Notes: generated by a model from the letters alone, not told the origin. Shown: positions 44,898 to 64,000, numbered from the stretch's first letter. The stretch is 64,000 bases of DNA from an uncultured Acidobacteriota bacterium (GCA_963796275.1 CAWCKY010000006.1:1696001-1760000), one strand, 5' to 3'. Numbers and translations are program-made.

Positions 44898-45233
44898 GGA
44901 GGTCCCTCACATAGTTATAGGTCCGCGTCTCTAAATATGACGGCCGTATGTTGTCATGCTGACAGAGCGCGAATATACGGGGGTGCGTGAGTAGGCAAGA
45001 CTTTCCGCATAGTACAACGGAATTTAGCGCAAATCGAATCGGTTCGGTCCTTCCTATGCCGACTTTCTTCAAAACTTCCCAATTATTTTTGTCTTAGACT
45101 CAGAAAAAATATGCTTGGCGAGGGGATATTCCGATACAACAATTTAACAATCAATATGCCCGGCTTCTATTGAATGATTACAACTCGCTGATTTATCATC
45201 GCAACGCCCTTTCACTAAAATGAAAACTGGAAC

Positions 45234-46289: not shown

Positions 46290-46318
46290 ACGCGGTGAAT
46301 TAAGCGAGGAAACGCTGC

Positions 46319-47608
46319 TTGTCAGATCATCTTACGCAAAATCAGATTGAAAACTATAGCCGCCATTCGCTACCGGCTGCGGATTTGCTCTCCGTCTCCG
46401 ACCACCTCGCCTTCTGCGAGACCTGCCGCCAGCAGGTCCAATGGGCGCTCAATAGTGATGCTATCTATCTCGCGCTCAGATCCGAACTATTCGATCGTAC
46501 GCAACTCTTCTCACCTTCCACAGCTTACGGGCACCTGACATTTGAGCAGATCGTCGGAACAGTTGACGCAACCCTCGCCCACGATGAACTGCAGTCCGTC
46601 ACGGATCACTTGGTCTGCTGCCAACAATGTGTCATGGCAGTCGACGATCTGCGCGTATTTAAAGAGCAGATCGAACCCGAACTCGTCCTCCCGGATCAAC
46701 CTCCCGCTTTGGATTTAAAGAGCCTAACAGCCTGGCCTCGCTGGTTTACGTTGTGGCCCAAATCGCTGGTCTTCGGTTCGGCGCTGGCCGCGCTCTTGCT
46801 GGCTGTCTCCGGCTTGATGTTATGGCAGGCGTTCAAGGTAACAAAAAAGGATGCGCCGAGTACGGCCGTGATGACGCCCTCACCCGCTCCTTCAGCGCCT
46901 GTCCCATCCGGACCGAATCCTGGGGGCGCTACGGCAGTTGCGCTGCTCAACGACGGTGCGGGGCAGGTGAGGTTGGATCAGGCGGGCAAACTATCGGGCG
47001 TCGATCACTTGCCACCCGCTTATCAACAGATTGTAAAAAACGCGCTAACCAAACAGGAATTCGAAAGATCGCCGTTGCTGGCGGGATTGACTCCGAGGGG
47101 TATCACGCCGCGTGGCGGAGGGGATGAGCCGCGCGACAAGTTTTCATTGATCGAGCCGGTCAGGACTTTGGCCCTCTCAGAGCATCCGGATTTTCGCTGG
47201 TCGCGTTTGGTTGGTGCCTCGGTTTATGTGCTCGAGATATACGACGAAGAGTTCGACCTTGTGTCGACCAGTCCACGCATCGCCGGTCAGAGGTGGAGGG
47301 TGCGGCAACCGCTCAAACGTGGTGGCGTCTATTACTGGCAGGTAAAGGCGATCAAAGACGGCAGGGAAGTTGTCTCACCGCAACCGCCATCGCCCCAGGC
47401 GAAATTCCGGATTCTGGATGAGGCGAAGGCGAATGAGTTGGCGCGAGCGCGGCGAGCCTACGGATCCTCACGCCTGTTGCTCGGACTGCTGTATGCAGAG
47501 GCGGGATTGCTGGAAGAAGCCGAAGGACATTTTCGCGCCCTGCAGAAGGCGAATCCCGATTCCGCGATAGCCGCGCAATTGCTGCAGCAAGTACGGTCAC
47601 ATAAGTAA
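46319..47608 (+). CDS. Anti-sigma-like protein: two ZAS motifs, TM helix, Pro-rich linker, extracytoplasmic beta domain and TPR-like helix
   Basis: DHLAFCETC and DHLVCCQQC; TM LVFGSALAALLLAVSGLMLW; FRWS, YYWQVKA and LGLLYAEAGLLEEA. Starts 29 bp after the sigma gene. Confidence 0.82.
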   Translation: MSDHLTQNQIENYSRHSLPAADLLSVSDHLAFCETCRQQVQWALNSDAIYLALRSELFDRTQLFSPSTAYGHLTFEQIVGTVDATLAHDELQSVTDHLVCCQQCVMAVDDLRVFKEQIEPELVLPDQPPALDLKSLTAWPRWFTLWPKSLVFGSALAALLLAVSGLMLWQAFKVTKKDAPSTAVMTPSPAPSAPVPSGPNPGGATAVALLNDGAGQVRLDQAGKLSGVDHLPPAYQQIVKNALTKQEFERSPLLAGLTPRGITPRGGGDEPRDKFSLIEPVRTLALSEHPDFRWSRLVGASVYVLEIYDEEFDLVSTSPRIAGQRWRVRQPLKRGGVYYWQVKAIKDGREVVSPQPPSPQAKFRILDEAKANELARARRAYGSSRLLLGLLYAEAGLLEEAEGHFRALQKANPDSAIAAQLLQQVRSHK

Positions 47609-47851
47609 TTATCAGCAATTTGATGGCCGCTGATTTAAATGATCAGCCGAGCCTCGACAGCCATTCAGGACCCCGCCATCATTACTACCCTAGCACATAT
47701 TGTTTCCAGCTAAGTCGCGCCGGTGTTACAATCTTCCCAATAACATTATCAATTCAAGTGTTGCGGCGAGTTATTAATTGAAGGAATCGACAAAAGGGGC
47801 GGGGTGTAATCTGGAATTGTGAACAGATTTCCAGATAGGAGGATGTGTATC

Positions 47852-48262
47852 GTGATTAAAGAAATTGGGCAGCCGCAACTGACCAATGCCACCACAACGG
47901 CCAATAAATCCGCTTGGGGAGGATTTCCCAGCCCGGCCGATGATTACCTGCATCGCGCCCTCAATCTGAACGATCATCTCGTTCCGCATCCCATCTCCAC
48001 CTTCTTCATCGAGGTCAAAGGCGATGCGATGGCCGGCGAGAAAATCTTCGATGGAGATACGCTGGTGGTCGATCGAGCGGCCGATATTCGCGCCGGGCAC
48101 ATCGTAATCGCCGTCTCTGGCGGGGAGTTTATACTGCGCAAAATCGTCAGTCAGGAAGGCCGGTTCCTGCTTGTCTCCGATGATTCAGACAAGATGCCGA
48201 TCGAGCTGAATGACGCCTGTGAAATCTGGGGTAGGGTAATGTGGTCGCTCACCAGACACTAG
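47852..48262 (+). CDS. umuD: UmuD-like S24 family protein with altered catalytic residues
   Basis: GFPSPADDY...LNDHLV, GDAM, GDTLVVD, GEFILRK, WGRV. GTG start after AGGAGG. Confidence 0.75.
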   Translation: MIKEIGQPQLTNATTTANKSAWGGFPSPADDYLHRALNLNDHLVPHPISTFFIEVKGDAMAGEKIFDGDTLVVDRAADIRAGHIVIAVSGGEFILRKIVSQEGRFLLVSDDSDKMPIELNDACEIWGRVMWSLTRH

Positions 48263-48321: not shown

Positions 48322-49129
48322 ATGTTCGATCGCTATCTCACCCGTTGGGGCCTTATACCCGACGGCGAACCAATTACGACCAAAAGCAGTAGGCTGTTGC
48401 CGGTGAGGCGGGGCGATATGCCAGGCCATGCTTAAAATCGCGGTGGAGGCCGAGGAGCGGCGCGGGGCGGCTTTAATGGTTTGGTGGAACGCGGAAGGTG
48501 CGGCTCGCGTCCTGGCACACGAGGATAACGCCATACTGATGGAGCGTGCTATCGGCGAAGCATCACTCGTTGAAATGGCCAGGAATGGTCGCGATGACCA
48601 GGCAAGCCGAACGATCTGTGCAGTCGCGGCGAGGCTCCATGTGCCGAGGGATTATCCGCCACCATCGACGTTAGTGCCCTTGGCACAATGGTTCGATACA
48701 CTTGAGCCGGCAGCATCGAAGCAGGCAGGCGTCTTGAGCAGGGCCGCGAAGACGGCGCGCAAACTTCTGGCCGAGCCGCAAGAGGTCGTCGTTTTGCACG
48801 GAGATATTCACCATAGCAACATACTGGATGCAGGGCCGCGCGGATGGCTCGCCATAGACCCGAAGGGGCTGGTGGGTGAACGCGGCTTCGACTTCGCCAA
48901 TATATTCTGCAATCCCGATCTGGAGACGGCTACAACGCCTGATCGACTCGCGCGCCAGGCCTGTGTAGTGGCTGAAGCCGCGGGTTTGGACCGCGGGCGG
49001 TTATTGAAATGGATATTAGCCTATGCCGGCCTCTCGGCTGCCTGGACGCTCGATGACGGTGAGCAGCCTGAACTGGCACTGGCGGTAGCTGAAATCGCGG
49101 CCACGGAACTAGCGACTATCAGTCCTTAG
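48322..49129 (+). CDS. aph(6): APH(6)-family aminoglycoside (streptomycin) phosphotransferase, APH(6)-Ic-like; +1 frameshift at ~48424
   Basis: MFDRYLTRWGLIPDGE...LPVRRGDMP joins to MLKIA...LHGDIHHSNILD...WLAIDPKG...FDFANIF. Confidence 0.82.
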
Positions 49130-49525: not shown

Positions 49526-49553
49526 TTGACTTTCTAATTCGTTAGGATATTAT
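49526..49553 (+). promoter_or_regulatory. Candidate sigma-70 promoter for the sigma-subtilase-RHS cassette
   Basis: TTGACT-16 bp-TATTAT in an AT-rich stretch at the start of the duplicated unit. Confidence 0.35.
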
Positions 49554-49559
49554 AGGATT

Positions 49560-52500
49560 CATCTAGCTACCCCATCTTGAGCAGTTGATCTTCACCCATG
49601 CCTGTGGAATCAGCTGTGAGGAGGGGCTTTATTCTTCATAGCCAGAGATAAATCCATTACCATCTCTTGGATATCCTCACAGGCAAAGACGACCAACTTC
49701 CTCATTCCGTACATCAAAGAAAAAGAAAGCCTTCTGATGCGTTAGCTGACAGCCGGCCTCACATCAGATTTGAGCCAAGGAGCACTCCCCCCATGAACAA
49801 TTATTGTCATTCCTGCGGCCAGATCGATGGTTTCGAATATTCAATAACAAAGAATTTAAAGGACACAGCAGAATCACACCCTAACCAATCTCTTTTCTCC
49901 TGTTCAAAATGTGGTTGCAGTATATTGATCGAACGTCAAATAGAACCGAAGGAATCAGTCCCTTTGCCAACCCTCAATCCAGCTGTGCCCGCTGACCTGG
50001 AGCAGCTTGTAGAAATCCTTCTGCCCGATGTTAACGATGCTGTACGTTGGGCCTCTCTCCGGTATCAAGGTCGCATTTGCCAGGATGAGCTCGATGATCT
50101 CTCACAACAAATTATCCTCAGGCTGATAGAGGATAACTGCCGCCGGTTCCTTTCATTCAGCGGGCAAGCTTCATTCAAGACATGGCTCCAAACAGTAGTA
50201 GATCACCACGTATACAAATATCTCTGCCGACAGAAACGAACCGAGGCCCTGGATGAAATAGACTGGGAATCATTGACCTATTCACCACTGCAAGATCAAG
50301 GTATCGATACTGCAGAAAGGCGAAAACTGCTCTTCAGCGCACTCAGCAAGTTGAGCCGGCAAGAGCGGCTGTTATACCAACTTTGGTTTTTATCTGAGCT
50401 AGATGCTAAGGAGATAGCCGCTATCTTCAGGACCGAAGTCAAGATTATCTACAGGCGCAAGCAAACACTTGTTTGCAAACTCACGAGGCTCATGCAGAAC
50501 TTCCGAGGTCGCTAAAGAAAAATTTCGCTGGCGAAGGTGAATTTACCCGCGAAATGTCTCTATATACATGAAAGGTCAACAAGCTGTCGGCGAGAGGTAG
50601 GCTGCTCTTTGCTCGATCAGACAGAATGGAATTGCGCCTGAGCGATGTTTCGCTGAGTAAGGTGTGGTGTGTGCGGTAACCGGTTGACCGCCGAGTTAAC
50701 GGGATTAGCGGCAGCGCGGAGGCTGCTGGTAATATCCTAAACCACGGATCATCATTCGCTCACCCATCGTATCGGGGAAAATCAGTGATCAATTCCCGAG
50801 CAGTTAGTATTTACTCCCATAACACATTCATTTGGGAAACCCGGCATGTCGCTGGCGATAACAGCCGCCGCAAGACATGCCATTGAAGAGGTAGTGAATG
50901 CGAAGACAACATCTCCCCATCCTGACGGTATCGGCCTTTGGCTTAATCGCTATCTCTATCATCCTGGCTGGAGCCTGGGAGATTCTTCCCGGAGCGCTCT
51001 CGCAAACCCCGGCTAACTCCGCGCAAGAGCAAGTCTCGCCCGCCGAACTCGCGGGGGCCGTCGCAGAGCAGAGACTGGCCGCCGCACTGCTGACCCGCAG
51101 CGCCTCATTCGACGAAAGATTCAACAAATTGAGCGAGAGAGCGCTGAGGAAGGGAACCGTGCCGTTGATTGTCAGGGTGCGGGCCGCGTTTCAGCCCGAA
51201 GGCCAACTTTTGAATGCGGCACAACGATTGGCGCAGCGCAGCGTAATCCAAGAAGCGCAGGAGCGATTGCTGGCCGAGCTAAGGTACGTGCCGTCATCGC
51301 TCAAGAGATATAAATATATTCCTTACCTTGCGGCGGTGGTCGATACCGCAGGCCTGGCACAGCTCCAATCATCGGGCAATGCGTTGGAAGTGATCGAGGA
51401 CAGGTCGCTGAAATTGACCACGGGGGATAGCCTTCCGCTGGTAGGAGCGACAACGTCCTGGGCCGGCGGATATACGGGGAACAATAAGACTATCGCCATC
51501 CTCGACAGCGGTGTGGACAAGACACATCCGGATTTAACAGGCAAGGTCGTCTCCGAAGCATGTTACTCCACCGGCAATCTGACAGATTACGAATCTCTTT
51601 GCCCGGGCGGAGGTCCATCTTCCACAGCGGTAGGCTCCGGAATTCCGTGTACCGATGTGCCCGGCCTGGTGGGCGGCTGCTACCACGGAACCCATATCGC
51701 GGGAACGGCGGCAGGGCGAACGGGTGTCGCCATTAACGCGAACATCATCTCCATTCAGGTAATGTCACATGTTACCGATCAGTTTGAATGCGGCAACGAG
51801 AGTTGTCTGCGAGCGAAAACCTCCGACACTTTGCTTGCCCTGGAGCGCGTTTATGAACTGAGCAGTAACCCCACATACAATATCGCTGCGGTTAATATCA
51901 GTCTGGTGACCGACGCCCCCATGGAAAAATATAGTGACCACTGCGACGAGGTAGACAGCTCGCTTACGGCCATTATCAATCAGCTGAAGTCGGTGGGGAT
52001 CGCCACGGTAGTCGCAGCCGGCAATTATGGCTTTACAGACGGTCTAAGTTTTCCCGCCTGTATCTCATCCGTCATCAACGTCGCCGCCACGGGGGACGGC
52101 AGCAGTTCAGGGACGACTACAGATAGGGTGATTCCCGATTCAAACAGTGCTGATTTTCTCAAGCTGCTTGCCCCCGGCGGCGCCATCACCGCGCCCATAC
52201 CGGGCGGCGGATACGCTACCGGAGTGGGCACTTCGCAGGCGGCGGCTCACGTGTCGGGAGCCATGGCCTTACTAAGGCAAGAACTTCCCATCGGTGCTAA
52301 TAATACTGTTTGGTTTGATGATGGCTTGCCTGCGGGCGCCACGCCGTGGCCTGCCGACACTGCGACTGGAGGCGTGGTTGAATCATGGAACTGGGTGACG
52401 GCAAATCCGGCGCCAAACTCCGGAACTCAGTCACATCAATCGTCCGTGGCGCCAGGGATACGACAACATTACTTTATGGGCGCTACATCTAGGTTACAGG

Positions 52501-53060
52501 TAGGGACAGGAGAAATGCTCTATGCCTGGGTCTATCTTGATCCGGCAAGTATGCCTTCTGAAATAATGCTCCAATGGAATGACGGTGCGAGCTGGGAGCA
52601 TCGAGCATATTGGGGGGCGAATATCATAGGTTGGGGTCAAGATGGAACACCAGCGCGGATAAATATGGGGAGGCTGCCGGAAGCTGGGAGATGGATCAAG
52701 TTGGTAGTTCCCGCTCATGCGGTTGGGTTGGAAGGTGTAGCAGTAAATGGAATGGCATTTTCACAATATGGAGGGCGAGTGGCATGGGATCAGACGGGAA
52801 AAGCCTCCGCGTCAGTTGACGATTTACTGACTCTATTAAGAAGCACTGGCGTGCCAGTGACAGATACACGCCCTGACGCAAATAATCGCTCTGTGCCGCG
52901 GATCAGAATCGGCGCGGCCATGGGTGTAAATCCGCCGGATGAAAGTTGGCTGGTGGCATATTTCAATAATCCCGATTTGACGGGAGAGCCGACAGCGCGG
53001 GGAACCGACGGCATGGGATTCATCGACCGTGATTTTCAGGGCATCAGCCCTGCACCTGGA
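49560..53060 (+). repeat. Copy 1 of a long direct duplication (copy 2 = ~60857-64000+)
   Basis: Matching ORFs recur at a constant offset of 10938 bp (e.g. 50828/61766, 52025/62963). Confidence 0.95.
49793..50515 (+). CDS. ECF-like sigma factor with N-terminal zinc ribbon
   Basis: AAGGAG RBS; CHSC...CSKC; region 2 DDLSQQIILRL...SFKTWL; region 4 ALSKLSRQER...EIAAIF. Confidence 0.78.
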   Translation: MNNYCHSCGQIDGFEYSITKNLKDTAESHPNQSLFSCSKCGCSILIERQIEPKESVPLPTLNPAVPADLEQLVEILLPDVNDAVRWASLRYQGRICQDELDDLSQQIILRLIEDNCRRFLSFSGQASFKTWLQTVVDHHVYKYLCRQKRTEALDEIDWESLTYSPLQDQGIDTAERRKLLFSALSKLSRQERLLYQLWFLSELDAKEIAAIFRTEVKIIYRRKQTLVCKLTRLMQNFRGR

Positions 53061-54269
53061 ATCGATACTACGGACTACTCGATCCGCTGGACTCGCAACC
53101 TCACACTCACTCAAGGACTCTATCGCTTCTCGCTTACTGCCGACGATGGGGCGAAGCTCTACATCGACGATGTATCGCAGATTAATGAATGGTCTAATAA
53201 GACGATGGCGACCAGCTATCACGTAGATGTGAGTTTGTCTGCAGGCACGCACCGGATTAGATTGGAATATTACCAGGCTGAGAGTGATGCGAAGGTGCGC
53301 TTGAGATGGGCGTTATTTAACCCTACCTGCTCGCAGACAGTAGCGGCTGATCGATGGAAGGGTGAGTATTACAACAATATAAATCTGGCTGGCAACCCAG
53401 CGATGGTGCGCGATGACCTCAGCGGCAATCCGTTCGGCTTTGATTGGGAGGGCGGGCCTAATACCACCTGCAATATGATATTTGGCGATTGGTTCTCTGT
53501 TCGCTGGACTCGGGCGGTTGACTTTGCGGCAGGCCGGTATCGCTTCACGTTCACTAATATAGATGACGGATTCAGGCTTAAAATTGGCGGTCAACTGCTG
53601 ATCGATCGGTGGTTTGATGCGGCAGGGACGCATGTGGTTGATGTAGATCTTCCCGCGGGCAATCGCACAATCGAATTTGAGTATTACGAGAAGGGAGGCG
53701 TTGCGAGAGCCAACGTTTCCTGGTGTCTCTTCCAGACCGGCATTGTCGTCGTAAGTCCCGGCGTATACCTGACGCCACCCGGCCCGGACCATTCGGCAGT
53801 TACTTCGCCGTCGAACACAGGACACGGGGCAACAATGGTTACCTCCGCTTCGTCAAGTCAGGGGAAGAGTTGCCAGTGGTATGCGTTTCAGGCTGTCAGC
53901 GGGCTGATCAAAAAGATCACTCTTAAATTCGATTGGTCTATCAACGGAAGTGTCAGCACGGACGCCCCGCTCGGCAGCGGCGCGCATGCCTTCGCTTCAT
54001 TCAATGTCCAATACAAGACCGGTAGCGAGGTTTTTTTTGCAGTCAGTAAAATTGAAAGCAGTTTCATTTATCTTGGCCCCGGTGGGGAGTTTAAGCCATT
54101 CAACGATTCCGGCTCAGTCAGTGTCGATCTGTCGGCCAGCACGCCGATAAATCAGATTATTGTTTTTGACATATCATACGCGACGGCATCAAGTGGCACC
54201 GGCTCCGCGAACATGACCGCGACGGTCTCAAACATCCGCCTCGAAGTCGAGAGGGAGCTTTGCCATTGA
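50898..54269 (+). CDS. Secreted S8 subtilase with propeptide, inserted beta domain, two PA14 domains and a C-terminal beta domain
   Basis: Triad ILDSG / HGTHIAG / GTSQAAAHVSG, plus AAGN. PA14 motifs YSIRWT..ADDG..LEYYQ and FSVRWT..DDG..FEYYE. Confidence 0.9.
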   Translation: MRRQHLPILTVSAFGLIAISIILAGAWEILPGALSQTPANSAQEQVSPAELAGAVAEQRLAAALLTRSASFDERFNKLSERALRKGTVPLIVRVRAAFQPEGQLLNAAQRLAQRSVIQEAQERLLAELRYVPSSLKRYKYIPYLAAVVDTAGLAQLQSSGNALEVIEDRSLKLTTGDSLPLVGATTSWAGGYTGNNKTIAILDSGVDKTHPDLTGKVVSEACYSTGNLTDYESLCPGGGPSSTAVGSGIPCTDVPGLVGGCYHGTHIAGTAAGRTGVAINANIISIQVMSHVTDQFECGNESCLRAKTSDTLLALERVYELSSNPTYNIAAVNISLVTDAPMEKYSDHCDEVDSSLTAIINQLKSVGIATVVAAGNYGFTDGLSFPACISSVINVAATGDGSSSGTTTDRVIPDSNSADFLKLLAPGGAITAPIPGGGYATGVGTSQAAAHVSGAMALLRQELPIGANNTVWFDDGLPAGATPWPADTATGGVVESWNWVTANPAPNSGTQSHQSSVAPGIRQHYFMGATSRLQVGTGEMLYAWVYLDPASMPSEIMLQWNDGASWEHRAYWGANIIGWGQDGTPARINMGRLPEAGRWIKLVVPAHAVGLEGVAVNGMAFSQYGGRVAWDQTGKASASVDDLLTLLRSTGVPVTDTRPDANNRSVPRIRIGAAMGVNPPDESWLVAYFNNPDLTGEPTARGTDGMGFIDRDFQGISPAPGIDTTDYSIRWTRNLTLTQGLYRFSLTADDGAKLYIDDVSQINEWSNKTMATSYHVDVSLSAGTHRIRLEYYQAESDAKVRLRWALFNPTCSQTVAADRWKGEYYNNINLAGNPAMVRDDLSGNPFGFDWEGGPNTTCNMIFGDWFSVRWTRAVDFAAGRYRFTFTNIDDGFRLKIGGQLLIDRWFDAAGTHVVDVDLPAGNRTIEFEYYEKGGVARANVSWCLFQTGIVVVSPGVYLTPPGPDHSAVTSPSNTGHGATMVTSASSSQGKSCQWYAFQAVSGLIKKITLKFDWSINGSVSTDAPLGSGAHAFASFNVQYKTGSEVFFAVSKIESSFIYLGPGGEFKPFNDSGSVSVDLSASTPINQIIVFDISYATASSGTGSANMTATVSNIRLEVERELCH

Positions 54270-54754
54270 TAACGTTGCCGGAGACCGGCAGAAGGAAGGG
54301 TGTTACTTTCAACAATACTCTCGCGGTCAAGTCAGCAATGCAGATCATCCCGCAGCGGTATCTCTACCAGAAACCGTACCGGAGAAATTCGCGCCGGCTG
54401 ATACCAACAAACTATCGGGTCAACAATCGAGAATGCTGCTGCCGCCTGGATCTGACGCCGGCGCGAAGGCCACCTTGCCAAAGCCGAAAAGAGAGAAGCG
54501 CACCACCGGCCTTGCAGATATTCTCTTAACCTAAGGGGTCAGCTTCTAGATTCGCTAGCTGATAGGCGACGTCAGATGAAGCTCTGCCCTCTGTGCTGTA
54601 GAGAGGCGATTGGTGTAACAAATGCACGCAGACTGTTATTGATTCTGTAGCAAAGCGCACAGAGATCGATTGGAGTTAGATGGTAATTCGCTCGACAATT
54701 TCGCGAGCAATCATATTTTTACCGTGAATCAGCACATCATTCCAGCTCAGGGGT

Positions 54755-57700
54755 ATGATTGATGCAAAATTCACTAGGGGTAACCTCATGTTCAACTCAT
54801 TTACCGCCGTCGCGATTCGTCATTTAGTTCCATGCAATCTGTTGCTCATAACACTGGCAGCACTGCAAACCATATGTTTGGCGCAAGCCCCGAACGGTAA
54901 GCAGTACACATCGACGATGAACGATCTGAATGAGCGAGCCAATGTCGAAGTAGATCCATCATCGCTGGGGTTAAATATCAGCATCTCGTTGGCCGACTTC
55001 CCCGGACGTGGGGTGAGCCTGCCAGTCACGCTGCGCTACTCGTCGAAGATATGGCAGATCAAGCACAACGGGACAAACATCAACCCCGGCGACGGCAATA
55101 TTTCCGAGTACACCCTCTCTGGTGTGTGGTATACCGGCACTCGAGCGGGCTGGACCTCGAGCCTTACTGTTCCTTATATCGAATTCACCGGGCAGACGGA
55201 GCCCTTTATTGCCAGGTTCAATCTCGCCAACCGCGACCTGGCTGCTCCCGACGACGGGAATGCCTGGGATTACGCATTCCCACCTCGAGTTGAAGGTAAC
55301 TCAACTCCTCTTATGTATTCCGCCAACCGCGCGATACTACGAATGCCCGATGGTTCATCACACGAAATGCGACAAGATGATTTGGTCCATTTCGGCACCG
55401 TCGGTGGCCCAGTAAACAGGATCTATTATGCAGCGGACGGCTCCCGCATAAAGTACGATCCAACCAGTCAAGTAGTTTTTTTGCCCGACGGCTCTCGCTA
55501 TCTACTGAACACGGCCAATGGGGCGCAATACATTGATCGCAACGGCAACACGCTGAACTACAACTCCAATACCAGCGAGTGGACAGATACGCTCGGACGA
55601 GTAATTCCAGACCCTCTGGGCGGCAGCAGCGGTAGCGACTATCACTGGACAGTGCCCACGGCACAAGGCGGGACTGCAACCTACATCTTCCGCTGGAGAT
55701 TACTCAGCGAATCGTTAACGGACACTACTCAGCCTCTGCACTATATTGGCCCAGTCATGATGAAATTTTCTGGTGGATATCCATTTATCGAGTCAGTTCC
55801 CGGGCCATCCTTGTTTGGCGAATCTTCCCTTGGGTTAGGGGCGGACCGCCCTGCCTATGTCCTCGCGCTGCGCTTCTCTCCCGGTCCGCCCGAATTGTTC
55901 AATCCCGGTGTGCTCTCTGAGATCGAACTGCCGAACGGTCAGAAGTATAGATTCACCTACAACGTATACGCTGAGTTGGACAAAATATATTTACCGACGG
56001 GAGGTTACAAGAGATATCGCTATAACCGTGTGCCGGCCTCGGACCTCGACAATCAGTCGCTCGCCTATTCGCAGGCCAATCGCGGTGTGGTCGAGGGGAT
56101 AGAGAGTGTTACGGGCAAACCGCAAGATGAGACACCCCCGTGGACCTTTCAACCCGCGAGCCTAGGTACTGCCAACGTTACGGCGACCAACCCCGACGGG
56201 TCGTTTGTGCGGAGGTACATTCATGAGCGGGATGCACTCAACAATATGTTTAACGCCAGCCCACGCGAAGCGATTGCCGGGAGGATTTATGACGAGGAGT
56301 TCCACTCAGCATCAGGGCAAATGCTCAGGCGCATCCTGACGAACTGGGTTTATACTGGTCCCCAGCATCTCCCACCCATCCCTCACGCCCAAGAGCCTAT
56401 CGGTATGGATTGGACCTCACGAGACGCTCGCGTGACGCGAAAAGTGGAAATCTTGCTCGATACTTCTGGCAATGCCTTGGCAAAGGCAACTGAGTATCTC
56501 TATGACAACGATCTGAATGTCGCCAGCACAAAATATTATGATTATGTCTCTATCAGCAAGTCTACTGGGCAGTCCGCTCCGATTGGTTCGATTCCGAATG
56601 GTGCCCTGTTGAAAACGGAAGAGACCACATATCTGGTCAACGACGCTTCTATCGCGCAAACTACTCGGGATGCTTACCGGGCACGTCACTTGACTGCTCT
56701 TCCGTCGAAGACCCTTGTCAGAGATAGCTCAAATGCTGTCGTCGCCGCGACAGAGTACAAATATGACGAGAGCGCCTTTCCGCTCACCACCTACTCTGCT
56801 GTTTCCGGCTGGAGCGATCCGCAAACTCCTTTCCGAGGCAACGTCACGACCATTCGCCGGTGGCTAGACAATAATCATCCCTGGGGAGGTTGGACAAGCG
56901 GGACATGGATAGAGACTCACACTTGGTACGATCAGTGCGGCAATGCCATCAAAGTCAGAGATGCAAATAACAATGATACCATAATAAGTTATGAGGATAA
57001 TTTCTACGACTTTCCGCCGCAGAACTCCCATGCCTACCCTACTAGCGTGACAACAGCAGGGCCAGCGCACACGACTTTTACTAAGCATGATTTCAACTCC
57101 GGTTTAGTAAGAGAAGTGACTGATCCCAATAATATCAAGACCAGATACGATTACAATGATTCTTTTAATCGATTGACCAGGATGGTTCGTGCAGAAGGCA
57201 CGATCGTGGAGAATCAAACGACGATTCAATATGAGGATTACAGTCGCATTGCTACAACCACCAGCGATCGTAACAGTTTTGATGATAATATACTCAAAAG
57301 TCAATTAGTCTATGATGGGTTTGGGCGCACTATCGAATCGCGGCAGTACGAAACTGGATCGTCCTACATCGCAATCAACACTATTTATGACGTGCTCGGC
57401 AGCGTGTCGCAGGTATCGAACCCTCGCCGGTCGGGCGATCCTTTATGGACAACAACTGAGTATGACGCGCTCGGCCGTGTGATCAGAGTAACCACTCCCG
57501 ATGGCGCGCAGGTCATTACTCAATATAGCGGCAACCAGGTGACGGTCACCGATCAGGCCGGCAAGAGTCGCCGCAGCAAAACCGACGCGCTCGGCAGAAT
57601 GACTGAAGTGACTGAAAACCCGGGCGGACTGAGTTACCTGACAACATATGAATATGACACACTGAATAATCTACTCAAGGTGAAGCAAGGGCTGCAGGTT

Positions 57701-60127
57701 AGAAATTTTGCCTACGATTCTGTATCCCGCTTGATTTCCGCGACCAATCCGGAGAGCGGCACGATTACCTACGCCTATGATCCTAACGGCAATCTCTTAG
57801 AGAAGACGGACGCTCGCGAAGTTAAAACGACGATGACCTACGATGAGCTCAATCGGATGAGGACAACGACTTATTCCGCAACCACCCCTGAAGGAGAGCT
57901 GGTGGCTAATGCGACACCTCCGGTCTCTTATTTCTATGACGATTACTCTACATTGCCGGGCGGGGGACCGACCTGGCCAACCTGGTCGTGCGGAGGGCAG
58001 ACTCTCCCAAACAATCCGGTGAAGGGCAGGGTGATCGGCGTCACTTACGGAACTGGGTCTGATGGAACCTATTATCGGTACGATGCCGCCGGCAGAATAA
58101 TTGGCAACCTCCAACGTATGGGGACACCCAACTTTGTTACAAGGTATGCCTACAATCTTGCAGACGCCGTCCTTGAGGAGTGCAGGGGGTATTCAAGTGC
58201 AACAAGGGCTGCTGTTAGAAATATGTCCACATATGACGATGCCGGTCGCCTGACAGATATGCGGACATCGTTCAACCCTCACACAACCTCTAAATACTTA
58301 GTAGAAGGTATAAGTTATACTCCGTTCGGCGCGCTGCAAACGGAGAACTACGGCAACGGTCTGATTCATTCGATTGGCTATAATAATCGACTACAACCGA
58401 CAGAGATTAGGCTGGGCACGCCGGGCAATCCGGAGTCCGTTTTCACCATCTACAATCTATACGGAACCGCAGCCAATCCGAACGTCCAGGACTCGGGGAT
58501 TACGCTCGCTCAGAACAACGGCAACCTGGCCAGGACCAAGTACGTTATCAGCGGGGCACTGAAATATTCGCAGACGTTTCAATACGATCCGGTGAACCGG
58601 CTCAAATACGCGGTCGAACACAACAACGGCACTTACACCGATGCGGCGCGCGCCTGGTACCAGACCTTCGAATACGATTTTGCGGGTAATCGCGGGATAA
58701 ACAGGGCAAGCACGTCGGACAATGTAGATGGCGCAAACAGCGCCTTGCAGAAGGCCGAGTTCAGTGAGGTGAACAATCGCATCACTCACGCCGACTACCA
58801 CTACGACGTTGCCGGAAATCTTACCGGAGAACCCGGAAAGCGTTATACTTACGATGCATTTAACAGACTTGTCACTGCCGAGGTGGTCGGTGGAGCAACG
58901 AGCCAATACGTATACGACGGCAATGGCCGGCGAGTGAAAAAGACAGTCAGTGGAGTGGGCACGAGATTCGAATATGGCGCGGGGGGCGAACTGATTGCGG
59001 AGCGGAATGATGCTGGTGTTGTGACAACCTGGTATTATTACCGGAACGGCGAGTTATTAGCTACCTCAGAGAACGGAACAATGCATAAGTACGCGGCATC
59101 CGATCACCTGGGATCGCCGCGAGCGTGGACGGATGAAGTTGGGAGCCTGACCGAGGGCGGGCGTCACGATTACTTACCCTTCGGTGAAGAGCTCGGAATT
59201 GGGGTTGGGATCAGAAGCGCGAGCATTGGTTATGGCGGCGATTCAGTACGCCAGAAGTTTACTGGATATGAGCATGACGATGAAACTGGACTGGAATTCG
59301 CACAGGCAAGGTATTACGCGAGTGTGCAAGGGAGATTCACAAGCACAGACGAATTCAAAGGCGGACCGGATGAGTTATGGGTGTTAGGAAGCGGAGACCC
59401 GGAAAAGCAAGCGCTCGTGTATGCCAACATCAATATCCCACAATCGCTGAACAAGTATCAGTACTGCTTTAATAACCCCTTGAGATATGTGGACCCAGAT
59501 GGCCAGAATCCCCAAGATGGAGGGCGCGGGCGTGCTGAAGAGCGAGATGTCATGGCTCTTGCAGCGGGTAAGATTTCTCCAGAGGAGTTTAAAAAACGCC
59601 AGCAAGAAAGAGTTTATTATGAGGGAGTTGGTGCGGTAATAGGCATAGGCATCGTTGTGGCTCCAAATGCTACTATGGCATCTCTGGCGTGGATGCTGAG
59701 GAACCCCGCCACAGTACTTAGGTCGGCTGACACGGCAGCTCAATTACTGGAGGGAAATCCTGCATCGCTTCGGATGGGAACGCTTACGATTGCTGCGAGG
59801 ACTGGTCTTAATGCGGCTGAAGTCAGCACTGGTGCTCGGTTGGCAAAACAGATCGGCGGGCGGCTTGTCGAGAGTGCACATGTCGGTGCAGATTTCGTTG
59901 ATGCCGTTACCAAGAAGACATTTGATGCTATGGGGACTCCAGACGCATACAAGTATTTTGGCTCTGGCAAAAAATTCTTTGAGTCGATTGTGCATCACGT
60001 GAATAAGTCAGTTGATCACGTCGCCATTGACTTGATGGGAGCGTCGAAGGTCCAGATTAAGGCCATCAAGGGATTCGTAAGCGGCCTGACCAAGGAGCAG
60101 CAAGGTAAGATCATATACATCGAATAG
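54755..60127 (+). CDS. RHS/YD-repeat polymorphic toxin with N-terminal signal-like segment and putative nuclease tip
   Basis: YD repeats; core DHLGSPR, FTGYEHD, ARYY and NNPLRYVDPDG; C-terminal extension of about 200 aa. Confidence 0.92.
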   Translation: MIDAKFTRGNLMFNSFTAVAIRHLVPCNLLLITLAALQTICLAQAPNGKQYTSTMNDLNERANVEVDPSSLGLNISISLADFPGRGVSLPVTLRYSSKIWQIKHNGTNINPGDGNISEYTLSGVWYTGTRAGWTSSLTVPYIEFTGQTEPFIARFNLANRDLAAPDDGNAWDYAFPPRVEGNSTPLMYSANRAILRMPDGSSHEMRQDDLVHFGTVGGPVNRIYYAADGSRIKYDPTSQVVFLPDGSRYLLNTANGAQYIDRNGNTLNYNSNTSEWTDTLGRVIPDPLGGSSGSDYHWTVPTAQGGTATYIFRWRLLSESLTDTTQPLHYIGPVMMKFSGGYPFIESVPGPSLFGESSLGLGADRPAYVLALRFSPGPPELFNPGVLSEIELPNGQKYRFTYNVYAELDKIYLPTGGYKRYRYNRVPASDLDNQSLAYSQANRGVVEGIESVTGKPQDETPPWTFQPASLGTANVTATNPDGSFVRRYIHERDALNNMFNASPREAIAGRIYDEEFHSASGQMLRRILTNWVYTGPQHLPPIPHAQEPIGMDWTSRDARVTRKVEILLDTSGNALAKATEYLYDNDLNVASTKYYDYVSISKSTGQSAPIGSIPNGALLKTEETTYLVNDASIAQTTRDAYRARHLTALPSKTLVRDSSNAVVAATEYKYDESAFPLTTYSAVSGWSDPQTPFRGNVTTIRRWLDNNHPWGGWTSGTWIETHTWYDQCGNAIKVRDANNNDTIISYEDNFYDFPPQNSHAYPTSVTTAGPAHTTFTKHDFNSGLVREVTDPNNIKTRYDYNDSFNRLTRMVRAEGTIVENQTTIQYEDYSRIATTTSDRNSFDDNILKSQLVYDGFGRTIESRQYETGSSYIAINTIYDVLGSVSQVSNPRRSGDPLWTTTEYDALGRVIRVTTPDGAQVITQYSGNQVTVTDQAGKSRRSKTDALGRMTEVTENPGGLSYLTTYEYDTLNNLLKVKQGLQVRNFAYDSVSRLISATNPESGTITYAYDPNGNLLEKTDAREVKTTMTYDELNRMRTTTYSATTPEGELVANATPPVSYFYDDYSTLPGGGPTWPTWSCGGQTLPNNPVKGRVIGVTYGTGSDGTYYRYDAAGRIIGNLQRMGTPNFVTRYAYNLADAVLEECRGYSSATRAAVRNMSTYDDAGRLTDMRTSFNPHTTSKYLVEGISYTPFGALQTENYGNGLIHSIGYNNRLQPTEIRLGTPGNPESVFTIYNLYGTAANPNVQDSGITLAQNNGNLARTKYVISGALKYSQTFQYDPVNRLKYAVEHNNGTYTDAARAWYQTFEYDFAGNRGINRASTSDNVDGANSALQKAEFSEVNNRITHADYHYDVAGNLTGEPGKRYTYDAFNRLVTAEVVGGATSQYVYDGNGRRVKKTVSGVGTRFEYGAGGELIAERNDAGVVTTWYYYRNGELLATSENGTMHKYAASDHLGSPRAWTDEVGSLTEGGRHDYLPFGEELGIGVGIRSASIGYGGDSVRQKFTGYEHDDETGLEFAQARYYASVQGRFTSTDEFKGGPDELWVLGSGDPEKQALVYANINIPQSLNKYQYCFNNPLRYVDPDGQNPQDGGRGRAEERDVMALAAGKISPEEFKKRQQERVYYEGVGAVIGIGIVVAPNATMASLAWMLRNPATVLRSADTAAQLLEGNPASLRMGTLTIAARTGLNAAEVSTGARLAKQIGGRLVESAHVGADFVDAVTKKTFDAMGTPDAYKYFGSGKKFFESIVHHVNKSVDHVAIDLMGASKVQIKAIKGFVSGLTKEQQGKIIYIE

Positions 60128-60138
60128 AAGGAAACATT

Positions 60139-60522
60139 ATGGGCGGGGTAATAAGTTTTTCAAGTAAGACCGAAGAAGTTTGGGGTGTTGTTGCAGGGTG
60201 GGCCTACCGGCAAGTGATGGACGACGTAATTTCTCAGTATCCGGGAGATTCGGAAATGGCCGGCATATTCGCCGAGGCAAAGGCCATTGGCGGCCTTCAT
60301 CTCTATTTGCTGGAGCCAGAGATTGCAGTCAGGATCAAGAGAGGCATCTGGCAAGTGGCGACAGGCATCCTGTCCGGAACGATCCGATCGGGTATTCACG
60401 ACCAACCTTATGGTGACACGAGAACCATCGAACAGTACCGAGAGGTATTACAAGAATTACTGGAAACCTTTCCCCCGGCTTGGAGAGAGGAACGTGATTC
60501 TGAGCAAAGTCCGCCGCACTGA
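60139..60522 (+). CDS. Putative cognate immunity protein
   Basis: 127-aa acidic ORF starting 11 bp after the RHS stop, with AAGGA RBS. Confidence 0.7.
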   Translation: MGGVISFSSKTEEVWGVVAGWAYRQVMDDVISQYPGDSEMAGIFAEAKAIGGLHLYLLEPEIAVRIKRGIWQVATGILSGTIRSGIHDQPYGDTRTIEQYREVLQELLETFPPAWREERDSEQSPPH

Positions 60523-61086
60523 ATAGTTACCTTTGCAGGCCCACATTAACGACATCAAAGAACAACCACTTTCACGTGAAGAGAAGGCTAGAAATGATGC
60601 TGAAGAGGCACACTTTTCTCAAGCACCCACTACATAAACAGGGGGAAAAGGAAAGGTCATCTGATAATGGTTTTATGTTCGCGGGCCAATGTGCTAGTGA
60701 AAGCGGTTGCTCAGCGCGAACATAACATAAAACGGCATTATCGGACCCGAACAAGGTGCTTGATATGGTAAAGCACCTGACAAACATGAAAGAATGAAAT
60801 GCTCATAAGAGCATGTGGAGACTTTTCGGTTGACTGTTTAATTAGATATAGTATTTATCTAGCTACCCATCTTGAGCAGTTGATCTTCACTTGCGTCCGT
60901 GGGATCAGCTGTGAAGAGGGGCTTTCTTCTTCATAGGCAGAGCTAGAGCCATTACCATCTCTTGGATATCCTCACGGGCAAGACGACCAACTTCCTCATT
61001 TCTTACATCAATAGAAATAGAAAAGCCTTCTGATACGTTAGCTGACTGCCGGCCTCACGTCAGATTTGAGCCAAGGAGCACTCCCC

Positions 61087-61453
61087 ATGAATAATTATTG
61101 TCATTCCTGCGGCCCGATTGATGGATTCGTGTATCCAGACCTAAAGAAGTTAAAAGACACAGCGGCAAAATCACATCTCAATCAATCTCCTCTCTCCTGT
61201 TCGATATGTGTCTGCGATTTATTGATCGAATGTCAAATAGAACGGGAAGGATCAGTATCTCTGCCAAATCTCACTCGCACTCAGCAAGTTGAGCCGGCAA
61301 GAGCGGCTGTTATACCAACTTTGGTTTATATCTGAGCTAGATGCTAAGGAGATAGCTGCTCTCTTCAGGACCGAAGTCAAGATAATCTACAGACGCAAGC
61401 AAACACTTGTTTGCAAACTCATGAGGCTCGTGCAGAACTTCCGAGGTCGCTAA
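61087..61453 (+). pseudogene. Deleted copy of the Zn-ribbon ECF sigma gene
   Basis: MNNYCHSC start is retained. About 360 bp covering region 2 are missing at ~61276, which puts region 4 out of frame. Confidence 0.85.
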
Positions 61454-61835
61454 AGAAAAATTTCGCTGGCGAAGGTGAATTTACCCGCGAAATGTCTCTA
61501 TATACATGAAAGGTCAACAAACTGTCGGCGAGAGGTAGGTTACTCTTTGCTCGATCAGACAGTATGGAATTGCGACTGAGCGATGTTTCGCTCAGTAAGA
61601 TGTGGTGTGCGCGGTTACCGGTTGACCGCCGAGTTAACGGGATTAGCGGCAGCGCGGAGGCTGCTGGTAATATCCCAAACCACGGATCATCATTCGCCTA
61701 CCCATCGTATCGGGGAAAATCAGTGATCAATTCCCGAGCAGTTAGTATTTACTCCCATAACACATTCATTTGGGAAACCCGGCATGTCGCTGGCGATAAC
61801 AGCCGCCGCAAGACATGCCATTGAAGAGGTAGTGA

Positions 61836-64000
61836 ATGCGAAGACAACATCTCCCCATCCTGACGGTATCGGCCTTTGGCTTAATCGCTATCTCTATCAT
61901 CCTGGCTGGAGCCTGGGAGATTCTTCCCGGAGCGCTCTCGCAAACCCCGGCTAACGCCACGCAAGAGCAAGTCTCGCCCGCCGAACTCGCGGGGGCCGTC
62001 GCAGAGCAGAGACTGGCCGCCGCACTGCTGACCCGCAGCGCCTCATTCGACGAAAGATTCAACAAATTGAGCGAGAGAGCGCTGAGGAAGGGAACCGTGC
62101 CGTTGATCCTCAGGGTGCGGGCCGCGTTTCAGCCCGAAGGCCAACTTTTGAATGCGGCACAACGATTGGCGCAGCGCAGCGTAATCCAAGAAGCGCAGGA
62201 GCGATTACTGGCCGAGCTAAGGTACGTGCCGTCATCGCTCAAGAGATATAAATATATTCCTTACCTTGCGGCGGTGGTCGATACCGCAGGCCTGGCACAG
62301 CTCCAATCATCGGGCAATGTGTTGGAAGTGATCGAGGACAGGTCGCTGAAATTGACCACGGGGGATAGCCTTCCGCTGGTGGGAGCGACAACGTCCTGGG
62401 CCGGCGGATATACGGGGAACAATAAGACTATCGCCATCCTCGACAGCGGTGTGGACAAGACACATCCGGATTTAACAGGCAAGGTCGTCTCCGAAGCATG
62501 TTACTCCACCGGCAATCTGACAGATTACGAATCCCTTTGCCCGGGCGGAGGTCCATCTTCCACAGCGGTAGGCTCCGGAATTCCGTGTACCGATGTGCCC
62601 GGCCTGGTGGGCGGCTGCTACCACGGAACCCATATCGCGGGAACGGCGGCAGGGCGAACGGGTGTCGCCATTAACGCGAACATCATCTCCATTCAGGTAA
62701 TGTCACATGTTACCGATCAGTTTGAATGCGGCAACGAGAGTTGTCTGCGAGCGAAAACCTCCGACACTTTGCTTGCCCTGGAGCGCGTTTATGAACTGAG
62801 CAGCAACCCCACATACAATATCGCTGCGGTTAATATCAGTCTGGTGACCGACGCCCCCATGGAAAAATATAGTGACCACTGCGACGAGGTAGACAGCTCG
62901 CTTACGGCCATTATCAATCAGTTGAAGTCGGTGGGGATCGCCACGGTAGTCGCAGCCGGCAATTATGGCTTTACAGACGGTCTAAGTTTTCCCGCCTGTA
63001 TCTCATCCGTCATCAACGTCGCCGCCACGGGGGACGGCAGCAGTTCAGGGACGACTACAGATAGGGTGATTCCCGATTCAAACAGTGCTGATTTTCTCAA
63101 GCTGCTTGCCCCCGGCGGCGCCATCACCGCGCCCATACCGGGCGGCGGATACGCTACCGGAGTGGGCACTTCGCAGGCGGCGGCTCACGTGTCGGGAGCC
63201 ATGGCCTTACTAAGGCAAGAACTTCCCATCGGTGCTAATAATACTGTTTGGTTTGATGATGGCTTGCCTGCGGGCGCCACGCCGTGGCCTGCCGACACTG
63301 CGACTGGAGGCGTGGTTGAATCATGGAACTGGGTGACGGCAAATCCGGCGCCAAACTCCGGAACTCAGTCACATCAATCGTCCGTGGCGCCAGGGATACG
63401 ACAGCATTACTTTATGGGCGCTACATCTAGGTTACAGGTAGGGACAGGAGAAATGCTCTATGCCTGGGTCTATCTTGATCCGGCAAGTATGCCTTCTGAA
63501 ATAATGCTCCAATGGAATGACGGTGCGAGCTGGGAGCATCGAGCATATTGGGGGGCGAATATCATAGGTTGGGGTCAAGATGGAACACCAGCGCGGATAA
63601 ATATGGGGAGGCTGCCGGAAGCTGGGAGATGGATCAAGTTGGTAGTTCCCGCTCATGCGGTTGGGTTGGAAGGTGTAGCAGTAAATGGAATGGCATTTTC
63701 ACAATATGGAGGGCGAGTGACATGGGATCAGACGGGAAAAGCCTCCGCGTCAGTTGACGATTTACTGACTCTATTAAGAAGCACTGGCGTGCCAGTGACA
63801 GATACACGCCCTGACGCAAATAATCGCTCTGTGCCGCGGATCAGAATCGGCGCGGCCATGGGTATAAATCCGCCGGATGAAAGTTGGCTCGGAGCATATT
63901 TCAATAATCCCGATTTGACGGGAGAGCCGGTATTGGTAAGAAACGACGGCATGGGATTCATCGACCGTAATTTTGGTGAGGCGAGCCCCGCTCCCGGAAT
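61836..64000 (+). CDS. Second S8 subtilase-PA14 protein, partial (runs off right edge)
   Basis: Near-identical to the 50898 gene from ATG 61836, with the catalytic triad intact. Absent from the ORF track because no stop lies in the window. Confidence 0.9.
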   Translation, partial: MRRQHLPILTVSAFGLIAISIILAGAWEILPGALSQTPANATQEQVSPAELAGAVAEQRLAAALLTRSASFDERFNKLSERALRKGTVPLILRVRAAFQPEGQLLNAAQRLAQRSVIQEAQERLLAELRYVPSSLKRYKYIPYLAAVVDTAGLAQLQSSGNVLEVIEDRSLKLTTGDSLPLVGATTSWAGGYTGNNKTIAILDSGVDKTHPDLTGKVVSEACYSTGNLTDYESLCPGGGPSSTAVGSGIPCTDVPGLVGGCYHGTHIAGTAAGRTGVAINANIISIQVMSHVTDQFECGNESCLRAKTSDTLLALERVYELSSNPTYNIAAVNISLVTDAPMEKYSDHCDEVDSSLTAIINQLKSVGIATVVAAGNYGFTDGLSFPACISSVINVAATGDGSSSGTTTDRVIPDSNSADFLKLLAPGGAITAPIPGGGYATGVGTSQAAAHVSGAMALLRQELPIGANNTVWFDDGLPAGATPWPADTATGGVVESWNWVTANPAPNSGTQSHQSSVAPGIRQHYFMGATSRLQVGTGEMLYAWVYLDPASMPSEIMLQWNDGASWEHRAYWGANIIGWGQDGTPARINMGRLPEAGRWIKLVVPAHAVGLEGVAVNGMAFSQYGGRVTWDQTGKASASVDDLLTLLRSTGVPVTDTRPDANNRSVPRIRIGAAMGINPPDESWLGAYFNNPDLTGEPVLVRNDGMGFIDRNFGEASPAPG

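Follow-up and report, generated by a model that had tools for sequence, protein, structure and literature searches.

The question raised by the 3' part of the window (the whole stretch of 64,000 nt that was analysed, GCA_963796275.1 CAWCKY010000006.1:1696001-1760000, from an uncultured Acidobacteriota bacterium) is what kind of system its repeated gene cluster represents. The cluster comprises genes for an extracytoplasmic function (ECF) sigma factor, a secreted subtilase with PA14 domains, an RHS toxin and a small downstream open reading frame (ORF), and these four gene types, first proposed in an earlier note on this DNA, are all confirmed by profile matches and ORFs. That note had inferred a cassette amplified as whole units, with a glycan-binding protease that targets or matures the toxin. 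On the best reading, the locus is a polymorphic Sec-type RHS toxin-immunity system with its own ECF sigma factor and a co-located lectin-bearing subtilase, and it probably consists of two adjacent paralogous polymorphic-toxin cassettes in an island within umuDC, one intact and the other decayed and partly gene-converted.

Two cassettes and the tract they share

Cassette 1 (49526-60522) is intact. Its subtilase, S8_1 (1123 aa, 50898-54269, + strand), matches Peptidase_S8 at 75.9 bits and, at two places, PA14 (PF07691) at 81.1 bits (cut-off 24); the toxin gene, RHS1, and a candidate immunity gene follow. A second copy begins downstream at a spacing of 10,938 bp (50338-50637 against 61276-61575), which is far beyond chance, and in the 5' part of the sigma gene the spacing widens to 11,294-11,296 bp because copy 2 lacks about 360 bp. 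DNA homology was searched with blastn over the whole genome, including the sequence beyond the 64-kb window; positions past the window are given in region L001, in which 1836-5132 corresponds to window 61836 to window-equivalent 65132. Between the copies, 3084 nt align at 95.9% identity. The homologous segments, 49551-49970 and 50338-53416 against 60847-61267 and 61276-64354, amount to about 3.5 kb of an 11.3-kb unit, and recognisable likeness ends at about 53,700.

Identity within these segments is a mosaic. The leader and the 5' end of the sigma gene (49577-49971) are 78-87% identical, and a 362-bp gap in copy 2, against positions 49972-50337 of copy 1, comes next. Over the following 2.6 kb (50338-52970) identity is 93-100%, mostly 99-100%, and about 99% overall; it falls to 66-83% in the approximately 500 bp after 52970, beyond which nothing recognisable remains. 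Synonymous divergence is 0.0175 inside the near-identical tract (16 differences in 2070 nt) and 0.62 beside it (99 differences in 450 nt), with the jump at about residue 690 of the subtilase, and dN/dS is 0.26-0.29 on both sides of this boundary. With this jump in synonymous divergence, the near-identical 2.6 kb has the signature of recent gene conversion between two old paralogs, and not that of a recent duplication of the unit.

The restart of the unit 10938 bp later, as the earlier note described it, is thus real as a spacing, but what restarts is homologous over less than a third of the unit, and it has a deletion in the sigma gene, a divergent subtilase end, a different RHS and no homolog of the immunity gene. 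Whole-unit homology that takes in the RHS core was not found. The view that the cassette has been amplified as whole units is contradicted both by the gene content of copy 2, with its broken sigma gene, its truncated RHS of another subtype and its lack of tip and immunity gene, and by the confinement of high identity to the conversion-like tract of 2.6 kb.

Cassette 2 is instead an older, half-decayed paralog of cassette 1, and the pair has been partly homogenised, not freshly amplified. Its leader and broken sigma gene lie at 60847-61450 (+), with the 362 bp mentioned above missing, and tblastn recovers the sigma factor only in pieces corresponding to residues 6-117 and 225-282. The subtilase, S8_2 (1098 aa, 61836-64000 and on to L001:5132, +), is intact and 89% identical to S8_1 over 947 aa. 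It diverges from S8_1 after about residue 690, and its two PA14 domains are followed by an fn3 domain and a cysteine-rich tail instead of the C-terminal domain of S8_1. Between S8_2 and the truncated RHS gene, at L001:5344-5679, there is a stop-containing remnant of an S8_1-type C-terminal domain (40-51% identity), which suggests that the C-terminus of S8_2 has been replaced. The tallies on this remnant, and those on the sigma extension and umuC below, include one unpublished genome (G004), on which no specific claim depends.

The RHS-like gene of cassette 2 (L001:5660-8620) is a 986-aa ORF with homology only to about residue 910 and without a Pfam or NCBIfam match. Its product is 26% identical to RHS1 (540 aa; residues 380-871) and 35-38% identical to the RHS protein of a paralogous locus on contig C1. 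Past approximately residue 910, no RHS core, tip or immunity homology was found in any frame, and the 127-aa immunity candidate of cassette 1 has a single match in the genome, with no homolog after copy 2. Two orphan ORFs, small and without paralogs, come after the truncated gene, and are followed by a BamB-like propeller gene and then by umuC. The earlier note had proposed looking beyond 64 kb for a second RHS with a different tip and immunity gene. What comes after copy 2 is indeed a member of the RHS family, but one reduced to the N-terminal stump of another shell subtype, with neither tip nor immunity gene; a stump of this kind comes close to the absence of any RHS after copy 2, which the note itself had named as the outcome that would speak against it.

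A plausible history for cassette 2 would begin from a complete unit: the sigma gene would have suffered an internal deletion, the RHS would have been cut to about 910 residues, and tip and immunity gene would have been lost, with the subtilase kept. The first 2.6 kb of S8_2 may then recently have been overwritten by, or copied to, cassette 1 through gene conversion.

The RHS toxin, its tip and its immunity protein

RHS1 (1790 aa, 54755-60127, +), which is also present in the protein collection in a 1779-aa form (P0006), combines a Sec-type signal, a YD shell and the core motif NPLRYVDPDG (59477-59506). The repeats are recognised by RHS_repeat (PF05593, E 2.6e-30, in five stretches) and by the YD-repeat model TIGR01643 (66.9 bits), and the Rhs-associated core by TIGR03696 (47.3 bits against a cut-off of 32.5, residues 1496-1584). 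Within the core motif, P1575, L1576, R1577, Y1578, V1579, D1580, D1582 and G1583 are invariant in six proteins. The signal was read by eye at the N-terminus (...LLLITLAALQTICLAQA/PNG) and suggests that RHS1 is exported through Sec, in keeping with the assignment to a Sec-type class and not to a type VI secretion system (T6SS). Family scans of RHS1 and its neighbours detected no PAAR or VgrG, as had been noticed before, and RHS1 does not bear the marks of a T6SS effector. The host genome does contain a T6SS sheath gene (TssC) and three PAAR matches, all on other contigs; two of these three matches have RHS repeats as neighbours. Since those PAAR-linked repeats lie elsewhere, the RHS of the window belongs to a separate Sec-type class.

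The C-terminal tip of RHS1 (residues 1688-1790; 59816-60124, +) has a CdiA-CT(E479)-like tRNase fold. A search with PF18664 (CdiA_C_tRNase) gave E 0.0025 over profile positions 2-116 of 116. An AlphaFold model built from six tip sequences reached a predicted local distance difference test (pLDDT) score of 80-94 in the tip part, and the sole Foldseek match at E <= 0.001 was 5j4a_A (E 4.7e-5, probability 1.00, target-normalised template modelling (TM) score 0.77, root-mean-square deviation (rmsd) 2.4 A), so that the modelled fold is that of the solved CdiA-CT toxin of Burkholderia pseudomallei E479, in agreement with the sub-threshold match to the full profile. Two results weigh against this assignment: the match to PF18664 scores 18.5 bits against a cut-off of 26.5, which leaves the tip outside the family by sequence, and PDB sequence searches, run both with the single tip sequence and with a profile of it, returned nothing below E 0.5.

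The same tip is found on five other long RHS proteins with different shells (tips 44-79% identical, whole proteins 36-48%), and in repeated units of a second genus (G030, discussed below) homology stops at the tip boundary; on both counts the tip is a variable C-terminal toxin domain. S1707, H1709, D1724, H1748 and K1751 are candidate catalytic residues, and tRNase activity is predicted from the modelled fold.

Twelve nucleotides after the stop codon of RHS1 begins the gene for a 127-aa protein (60139-60522, +), the immunity protein candidate. It has relatives in 54 homologous clusters and no Pfam or NCBIfam family. Two members of this family are encoded on contigs that match in size (27538, 29712) those of the tip-sharing RHS proteins P0007 and P0008, and, judging from these equal sizes, they probably neighbour them. 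For the complex of tip residues 1660-1790 with the 127-aa protein the prediction score was 0.89, a level that 116 of 157 solved complexes and 2 of 215 mismatched pairs attain, and the best of three controls scored 0.00; a like complex, 5J4A, has already been solved, and the score may therefore partly reflect likeness to it. At least 99% of contacts are common to the three runs, the pLDDT of the partner is at least 89, and the predicted interface includes the invariant S1707, H1709, D1724, H1748 and K1751. With its gene directly downstream of RHS1, the 127-aa protein would be the cognate immunity protein, and it is a candidate for a new immunity family that has no curated model and whose interface is confidently predicted. 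The toxin/immunity pair that had been proposed for this locus gains support from the core, the tip and this partner.

WapA and WapI of Bacillus subtilis are a Sec-dependent YD-repeat tRNase toxin and its immunity protein. Like WapA, RHS1 is a YD-repeat protein with a signal peptide, a tRNase-type C-terminal tip and a cognate immunity protein; WapA, however, is a protein of a monoderm and has cell-wall-binding repeats, whereas RHS1 must cross an outer membrane and has a tip of the CdiA-CT(E479) type. The CdiA-CT/CdiI pair of B. pseudomallei E479 (5J4A, PF18664) shares the fold of the tip, with the TM score and rmsd given above over 117 columns at 24% identity. CdiA-CT is delivered by two-partner (type V) contact-dependent inhibition (CDI), not by an RHS shell, and a further difference is that the RHS1 tip stays below the Pfam cut-off and the 127-aa protein is without a detectable family. 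Rhs/YD-repeat polymorphic toxin-immunity systems have been surveyed by Zhang et al. 2012 (PMC3482391), and they share with the locus a YD shell, a core that terminates in ...YVDPDG, an exchangeable toxin at the C-terminus and, directly downstream, a small immunity gene, as well as the shuffling of tips among shell subtypes. RHS1 differs from the systems described there: it has a Sec-type signal instead of PAAR/VgrG in an acidobacterium that is diderm, it is followed by no orphan tip array, and a dedicated ECF sigma gene and a separate subtilase gene lie upstream.

Control region, umuDC island and other RHS loci

The left edge of the repeated block is a sigma-70-like promoter match, TTGACT N16 TATTAT (49526-49553, +), which is among the best of the region (10/12) and is kept in four paralogous copies; the number of promoter-like matches in the region is not above that in shuffles. 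Next comes a conserved leader of about 235 nt upstream of the sigma gene (49558-49792, +), with long invariant blocks in the four paralogs. The four copies lie at 49558-49792 and 60850-61096 (copies 1 and 2 on contig C6) and, for C1 and C7, at L003:10975-11200 (-) and L006:4690-4895 (-). Among these paralogs the leader is better conserved than the coding sequence, and there is a hairpin just 5' of the ribosome-binding site. A structured leader RNA was considered and rejected: Rfam gave no match, the folding z-score was -1.04, no better than that of shuffles, and compensatory change was seen in only 2 of 48 predicted pairs across the four sequences.

The sigma ORF (49667-50515, 282 aa) matches TIGR02937 at 63.7 bits (cut-off 42.9) over residues 110-273, and Pfam Sigma70_r2 stays below its cut-off (20.4 against 24). 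Only the sigma-2 and sigma-4 regions are present, as is the case in ECF group IV. An alignment of the four paralogous upstream regions points to the ATG at 49793 (MNNYCHSCG...) as the likely start, so that the gene would occupy 49793-50515 (+) and its product would have an N-terminal extension of about 70 residues with four cysteines (Cys4, zinc-ribbon-like). This extension occurs only among the paralogs of the host genome (G000). No anti-sigma family was found in any ORF between the sigma and subtilase genes, and with no anti-sigma adjacent the Cys4 extension might act in cis.

About 100 nt downstream of the sigma stop codon are conserved between the C1 and C6 loci, with a shared run of 12-mers and flanking similarity. 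This post-sigma block (50516-50620, +) is a candidate payload promoter. On C1 it is followed by an RHS gene and not by a subtilase, and the block is consistent with a promoter that serves whichever payload comes after it. The sigma factor may control the subtilase and RHS genes; the missing anti-sigma tells against it, as does the failure to find an ECF-type promoter motif (GGAAC...CGT) in five intergenic regions. In other genomes, none of the 10 examined loci with homologs of the ECF core has an RHS or a subtilase nearby.

Taken together, cassette 1 might work as follows. The sigma-70-type promoter and the conserved leader would lead to the ECF sigma factor with its Cys4 extension, and the post-sigma block into the secreted subtilase and then into RHS1 with its Sec signal. 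The YD shell would encapsulate the C-terminal tip, and cleavage at the ...YVDPDG core motif would free it, as in other Rhs/YD toxins. A released tip of about 100 residues would kill the recipient by cutting tRNA, and the 127-aa protein would protect by capping the conserved residues of the tip.

Both cassettes lie between umuD (47819-48262, +; Peptidase_S24 80.2 bits) and umuC (L001:11375-12649), which is 23.1 kb downstream of it. For umuD, NF007621 gives 109.6 bits, just below the cut-off of 110. Each gene is single-copy in G000, and order and strand are the same. In other genomes umuD lies directly upstream of umuC in 10 of 13 full-length umuC loci, and one of the three exceptions is at a contig end. 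Because the two genes abut in relatives, the island, which comprises an APH(6)-family ORF, both cassettes and the BamB-like gene, is a 23-kb insertion that splits the umuDC operon. It is lower in G+C (51.9%) than either flank (about 55%), and no target-site duplication longer than 8 nt was found at its ends.

The first gene inside the island is the APH(6)-family kinase ORF (48428-49129, +; APH_6_hur 254.9 bits). Profiles match it only from position 30-45 on, and the ORF as called therefore lacks the usual N-terminal part. An 80-nt hairpin-containing inverted-repeat element (60643-60725, no strand assigned) lies between the cassettes and has copies elsewhere in the genome, at C4:85641-85724 (92%) and C7:88345-88416 (88-89%); the C4 copy is just after a mosaic RHS fragment. 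In G001, a genome of the same genus, umuC is in two pieces on contig C549 (L173:9094-18670), with no umuD beside it and an RHS about 6 kb away on the other strand.

The island lies next to, and does not include, a cluster at 31410-47608 on the far side of umuD. Four TPR-CHAT genes in tandem (31410-44897, -), the last apparently in two frames, are divergent there from genes for an atypical sigma factor (45234-46289) and a putative anti-sigma (46319-47608). The suggestion that the cassettes are an output of this CHAT-sigma locus is weakened here, since umuD intervenes and the cassettes are in an inserted island, but it retains some ground in that CHAT, sigma and anti-sigma genes are inside the repeated unit of G030. 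G000 has 41 CHAT matches. RHS loci are within 25 kb of CHAT in 4 of 7 cases, compared with 13% of the genome (binomial P ~0.008), a threshold that was chosen post hoc, with no enrichment at 10-15 kb; this proximity is a weak hint.

A genuine whole-unit tandem exists about 150 kb upstream of the window (C6:1582950-1591346 and C6:1593603-1601999, period approximately 10.65 kb). Its units, each with genes for a PD40 propeller protein (838/858 aa) and an RHS (2092/2040 aa) and with small ORFs, show 88-89% identity over 7.7 kb, as far as the tips, which differ. An AraC-type regulator lies upstream of this tandem. On C7, a DUF6055 protein gene precedes the RHS, and in total three of the five Sec-type RHS loci of G000 have the gene for a large secreted protein directly upstream. 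The C4 mosaic (L004:2369-5249, that is C4:82369-85249) is made up of ORFs that join RHS1-like residues 47-272, a fragment of the subtilase mid domain (see below) and residues 1339-1586; a sigma fragment is nearby, as is an IS21-type transposase pair, and a 2042-aa RHS lies downstream.

The host is an uncultured soil Blastocatellia-like acidobacterium. Its 9.46-Mb assembly (G000; the window is G000:C6:1696001-1760000) has seven contigs and not a single N. The closest subtilase loci come from Blastocatellia, Pyrinomonadaceae or Acidobacteriota. Five public read runs contain 0.05-0.19 of the sampled words; four were compared with the window, giving only short matching contigs, and three of the four runs that contain small parts of the window are labelled soil metagenome. 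No public RNA run with window sequence is listed.

The subtilase beside the toxin

S8_1 consists of a signal, pro- and catalytic part (50898-52295), a mid domain (52296-52820), two PA14 domains (52941-53324 and 53349-53732) and an unassigned C-terminal domain. The catalytic triad and the oxyanion Asn (D203, H263, N376 and S446) are invariant in 14 homologs, and the PA14 domains, going by their family, would bind glycans. For the C-terminal domain, a protein atlas gave a best score of 0.87, with CBM_4_9 and Cleaved_Adhesin as leads only.

The mid domain, about 165-175 residues between the catalytic part and PA14, has no Pfam match. It was modelled as a beta-sandwich (pLDDT 88.5) that resembles carbohydrate-binding module (CBM) and adhesin folds, among them the cleaved adhesin of gingipain Kgp and the CBM8, CBM27 and CBM61 jelly-rolls (Foldseek E 3.5e-5 to 1e-3, TM 0.45-0.68). 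Like these domains it accompanies extracellular enzymes; unlike them it has no family at sequence level and is also inserted in RHS shells. It was detected in 2429 representative proteins at E <= 0.001, often in 2-9 tandem copies. When 32 of these, picked from across the ranking of 150 listed, were scanned against Pfam, partners were Peptidase_S8 in seven, RHS repeats in four, glycoside hydrolases in three, PA14 in two and astacin in one, and five had no family whatever. Several RHS proteins have it as an insertion in their shell, and three copies are present at the N-terminus of the C7 RHS. In the RHS shells of the P0007/P0011 group (loci L151-L153), an insertion site shortly before the core is occupied by the mid domain or by two discoidin-type domains, the latter in P0011; L152 also has a classic orphan array of five RHS C-terminal fragments. 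The mid domain is a general surface-binding module and not a specific link between protease and toxin. It had been considered as a specific tie between subtilase and RHS, and that idea was rejected because of this promiscuity, found in subtilases, RHS proteins and glycoside hydrolases alike.

The order subtilase-PA14-RHS is conserved outside the host only in G030, a genome from another genus of the same family, at three dispersed loci (L021, L022 and L039). The units there are 12-15 kb long and contain TPR-CHAT, an ECF sigma factor, a zf-HC2 anti-sigma, a small zf-HC2 ORF, S8-PA14(-fn3), RHS and a small ORF; among themselves they share 88-97% identity as far as the tip boundary of the RHS, and one of them has lost its sigma gene. 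Frame changes interrupt several genes in these units, at sites that differ from copy to copy. An orphan RHS C-terminal fragment is present at L021. Between cassette and G030 units, the subtilase is 63% and the RHS shell 65% identical.

Several findings weigh against regarding subtilase and toxin as parts of one system. Among 79 subtilase loci of species-representative genomes an RHS is nearby in two, both of them G030 places already counted, and among 79 metagenome loci with related subtilases in none; a first metagenome scan with a single protein query found no relatives. The order is thus absent from all 156 other subtilase loci (77 species-representative and 79 metagenome) and has been seen only in G000 and G030. 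In the same genus, the three subtilase-PA14 loci of G001 lack an RHS; among these is a tandem pair, after which another 9.5 kb of sequence could be read. At the C1 locus of the host, the sigma paralog leads directly to an RHS (1788 aa) with no subtilase between them; at L039 of G030, the RHS is kept and the subtilase is cut short, beside two reverse-strand ORFs; and S8_2 is under purifying selection (dN/dS 0.29 in its diverged part) although its RHS has decayed. The linkage of S8-PA14 and RHS that the earlier note wished to see surveyed therefore holds in G030 and fails in the 77 and 79 other loci and in G001. With a linkage so narrow, the part of the protease in RHS action, if it has one, is hypothetical.

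Real cooperation between protease and RHS, by targeting, envelope clearing or maturation, falls a little short of an even chance; the alternative is simple co-inheritance and co-expression. The conserved order in two genera and the pattern of upstream accessory genes speak for cooperation, and the narrow spread and the separate survival of the two genes for co-inheritance. In its plainest form, the latter would make S8_1 an ordinary secreted, glycan-anchored feeding protease that stands beside the RHS by one inherited juxtaposition and has no role in the toxin, which is a serious minority possibility. The domain set of S8, CBM-like domain, PA14 and fn3 is typical of degradative exoenzymes, the mid domain recurs in glycoside hydrolases, an astacin and other subtilases, homologs with 40-54% identity are widespread without an RHS nearby, and the survival of S8_2 under selection after the decay of its RHS is what would be expected of such an enzyme. 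Against it, the order has been kept since the two genera split, at the identities given above, and through at least four duplications, and the position of the subtilase between post-sigma block and RHS suggests a single transcription unit.

The model of the earlier note goes further, and makes the subtilase an obligate partner that is glycan-bound through PA14 and the CBM-like domain and either matures the Sec-exported RHS or opens the target envelope, in a unit that amplifies whole. This is unlikely, even though order, strand and short gaps are the same in five cassettes of two genera, the G030 units have been duplicated whole with different tips, and other Sec-type RHS loci of the host also have a large secreted protein upstream (PD40 twice, DUF6055 once). 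The linkage is missing from 156 subtilase loci and from G001, each partner persists alone (the C1 locus, S8_2 and L039), and copy 2 is not a whole unit. Self-cleavage is established for Rhs/Tc toxins, and Rhs proteins achieve it without an outside protease. Some precedent for a processing role comes from Table 1 of PMC3482391, where subtilisin is given as a processing protease of Sec/T2SS-type polymorphic toxins (T2SS, type II secretion system), and where, as here, an S8 protease is tied to signal-peptide RHS-repeat toxins. In that table the protease is a domain of the toxin polypeptide, whereas here it is encoded by a separate upstream gene of 1123 aa with lectin-like domains, and its processing role is a candidate one. 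An abstract-level search of the literature, covering main texts, returned no description of a separate subtilase gene linked to RHS in Acidobacteria.

That the tandem is an assembly artefact, a collapsed or duplicated repeat, is extremely improbable, and the earlier note had already called an assembly duplicate unlikely: the near-identity of the 2.6-kb tract and a junction between the cassettes (60.5-61.3 kb) that no public read or contig spans would allow it, but the copies differ by the 362-bp deletion, by 13-34% divergence flanking the tract on both sides, by their subtilase C-termini and by entirely different downstream genes, all on a 2.9-Mb contig without N, and an assembly duplicate was rejected on these grounds.

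The preferred reading, of two paralogous cassettes of which one is intact and one decayed and partly converted, bears on how such loci export their toxins and how they age. To our knowledge, the exit route of Rhs toxins with a plain signal peptide from a two-membrane cell, and their way to a target, are not known, most work having been done on T6SS-borne Rhs or on the monoderm WapA. For this export question the locus offers an intact Sec-type RHS with a recognisable tRNase-like tip, as well as a new immunity family and a candidate accessory protease; if the protease proves irrelevant, it is an ordinary polymorphic-toxin island.

A bolder generalisation, which we consider improbable, is that the Sec-type RHS toxins of these diderm acidobacteria are two-gene weapons, each with a dedicated large secreted accessory protein encoded upstream. 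If this were true, the accessory would here be the subtilase with its CBM-like and PA14 domains, and elsewhere a PD40 propeller or DUF6055 protein; it would attach to glycans, either those of the target or those of the producer surface, and be needed for outer-membrane export, targeting or toxin release, and the unit of duplication and tip swapping would comprise accessory, RHS and immunity gene together with the regulator. Whatever the part played by the protease, the locus shows how such loci age, with one cassette decaying beside an intact one. Gene conversion keeps part of the decaying cassette looking young, and can mislead readers into seeing a fresh amplification.

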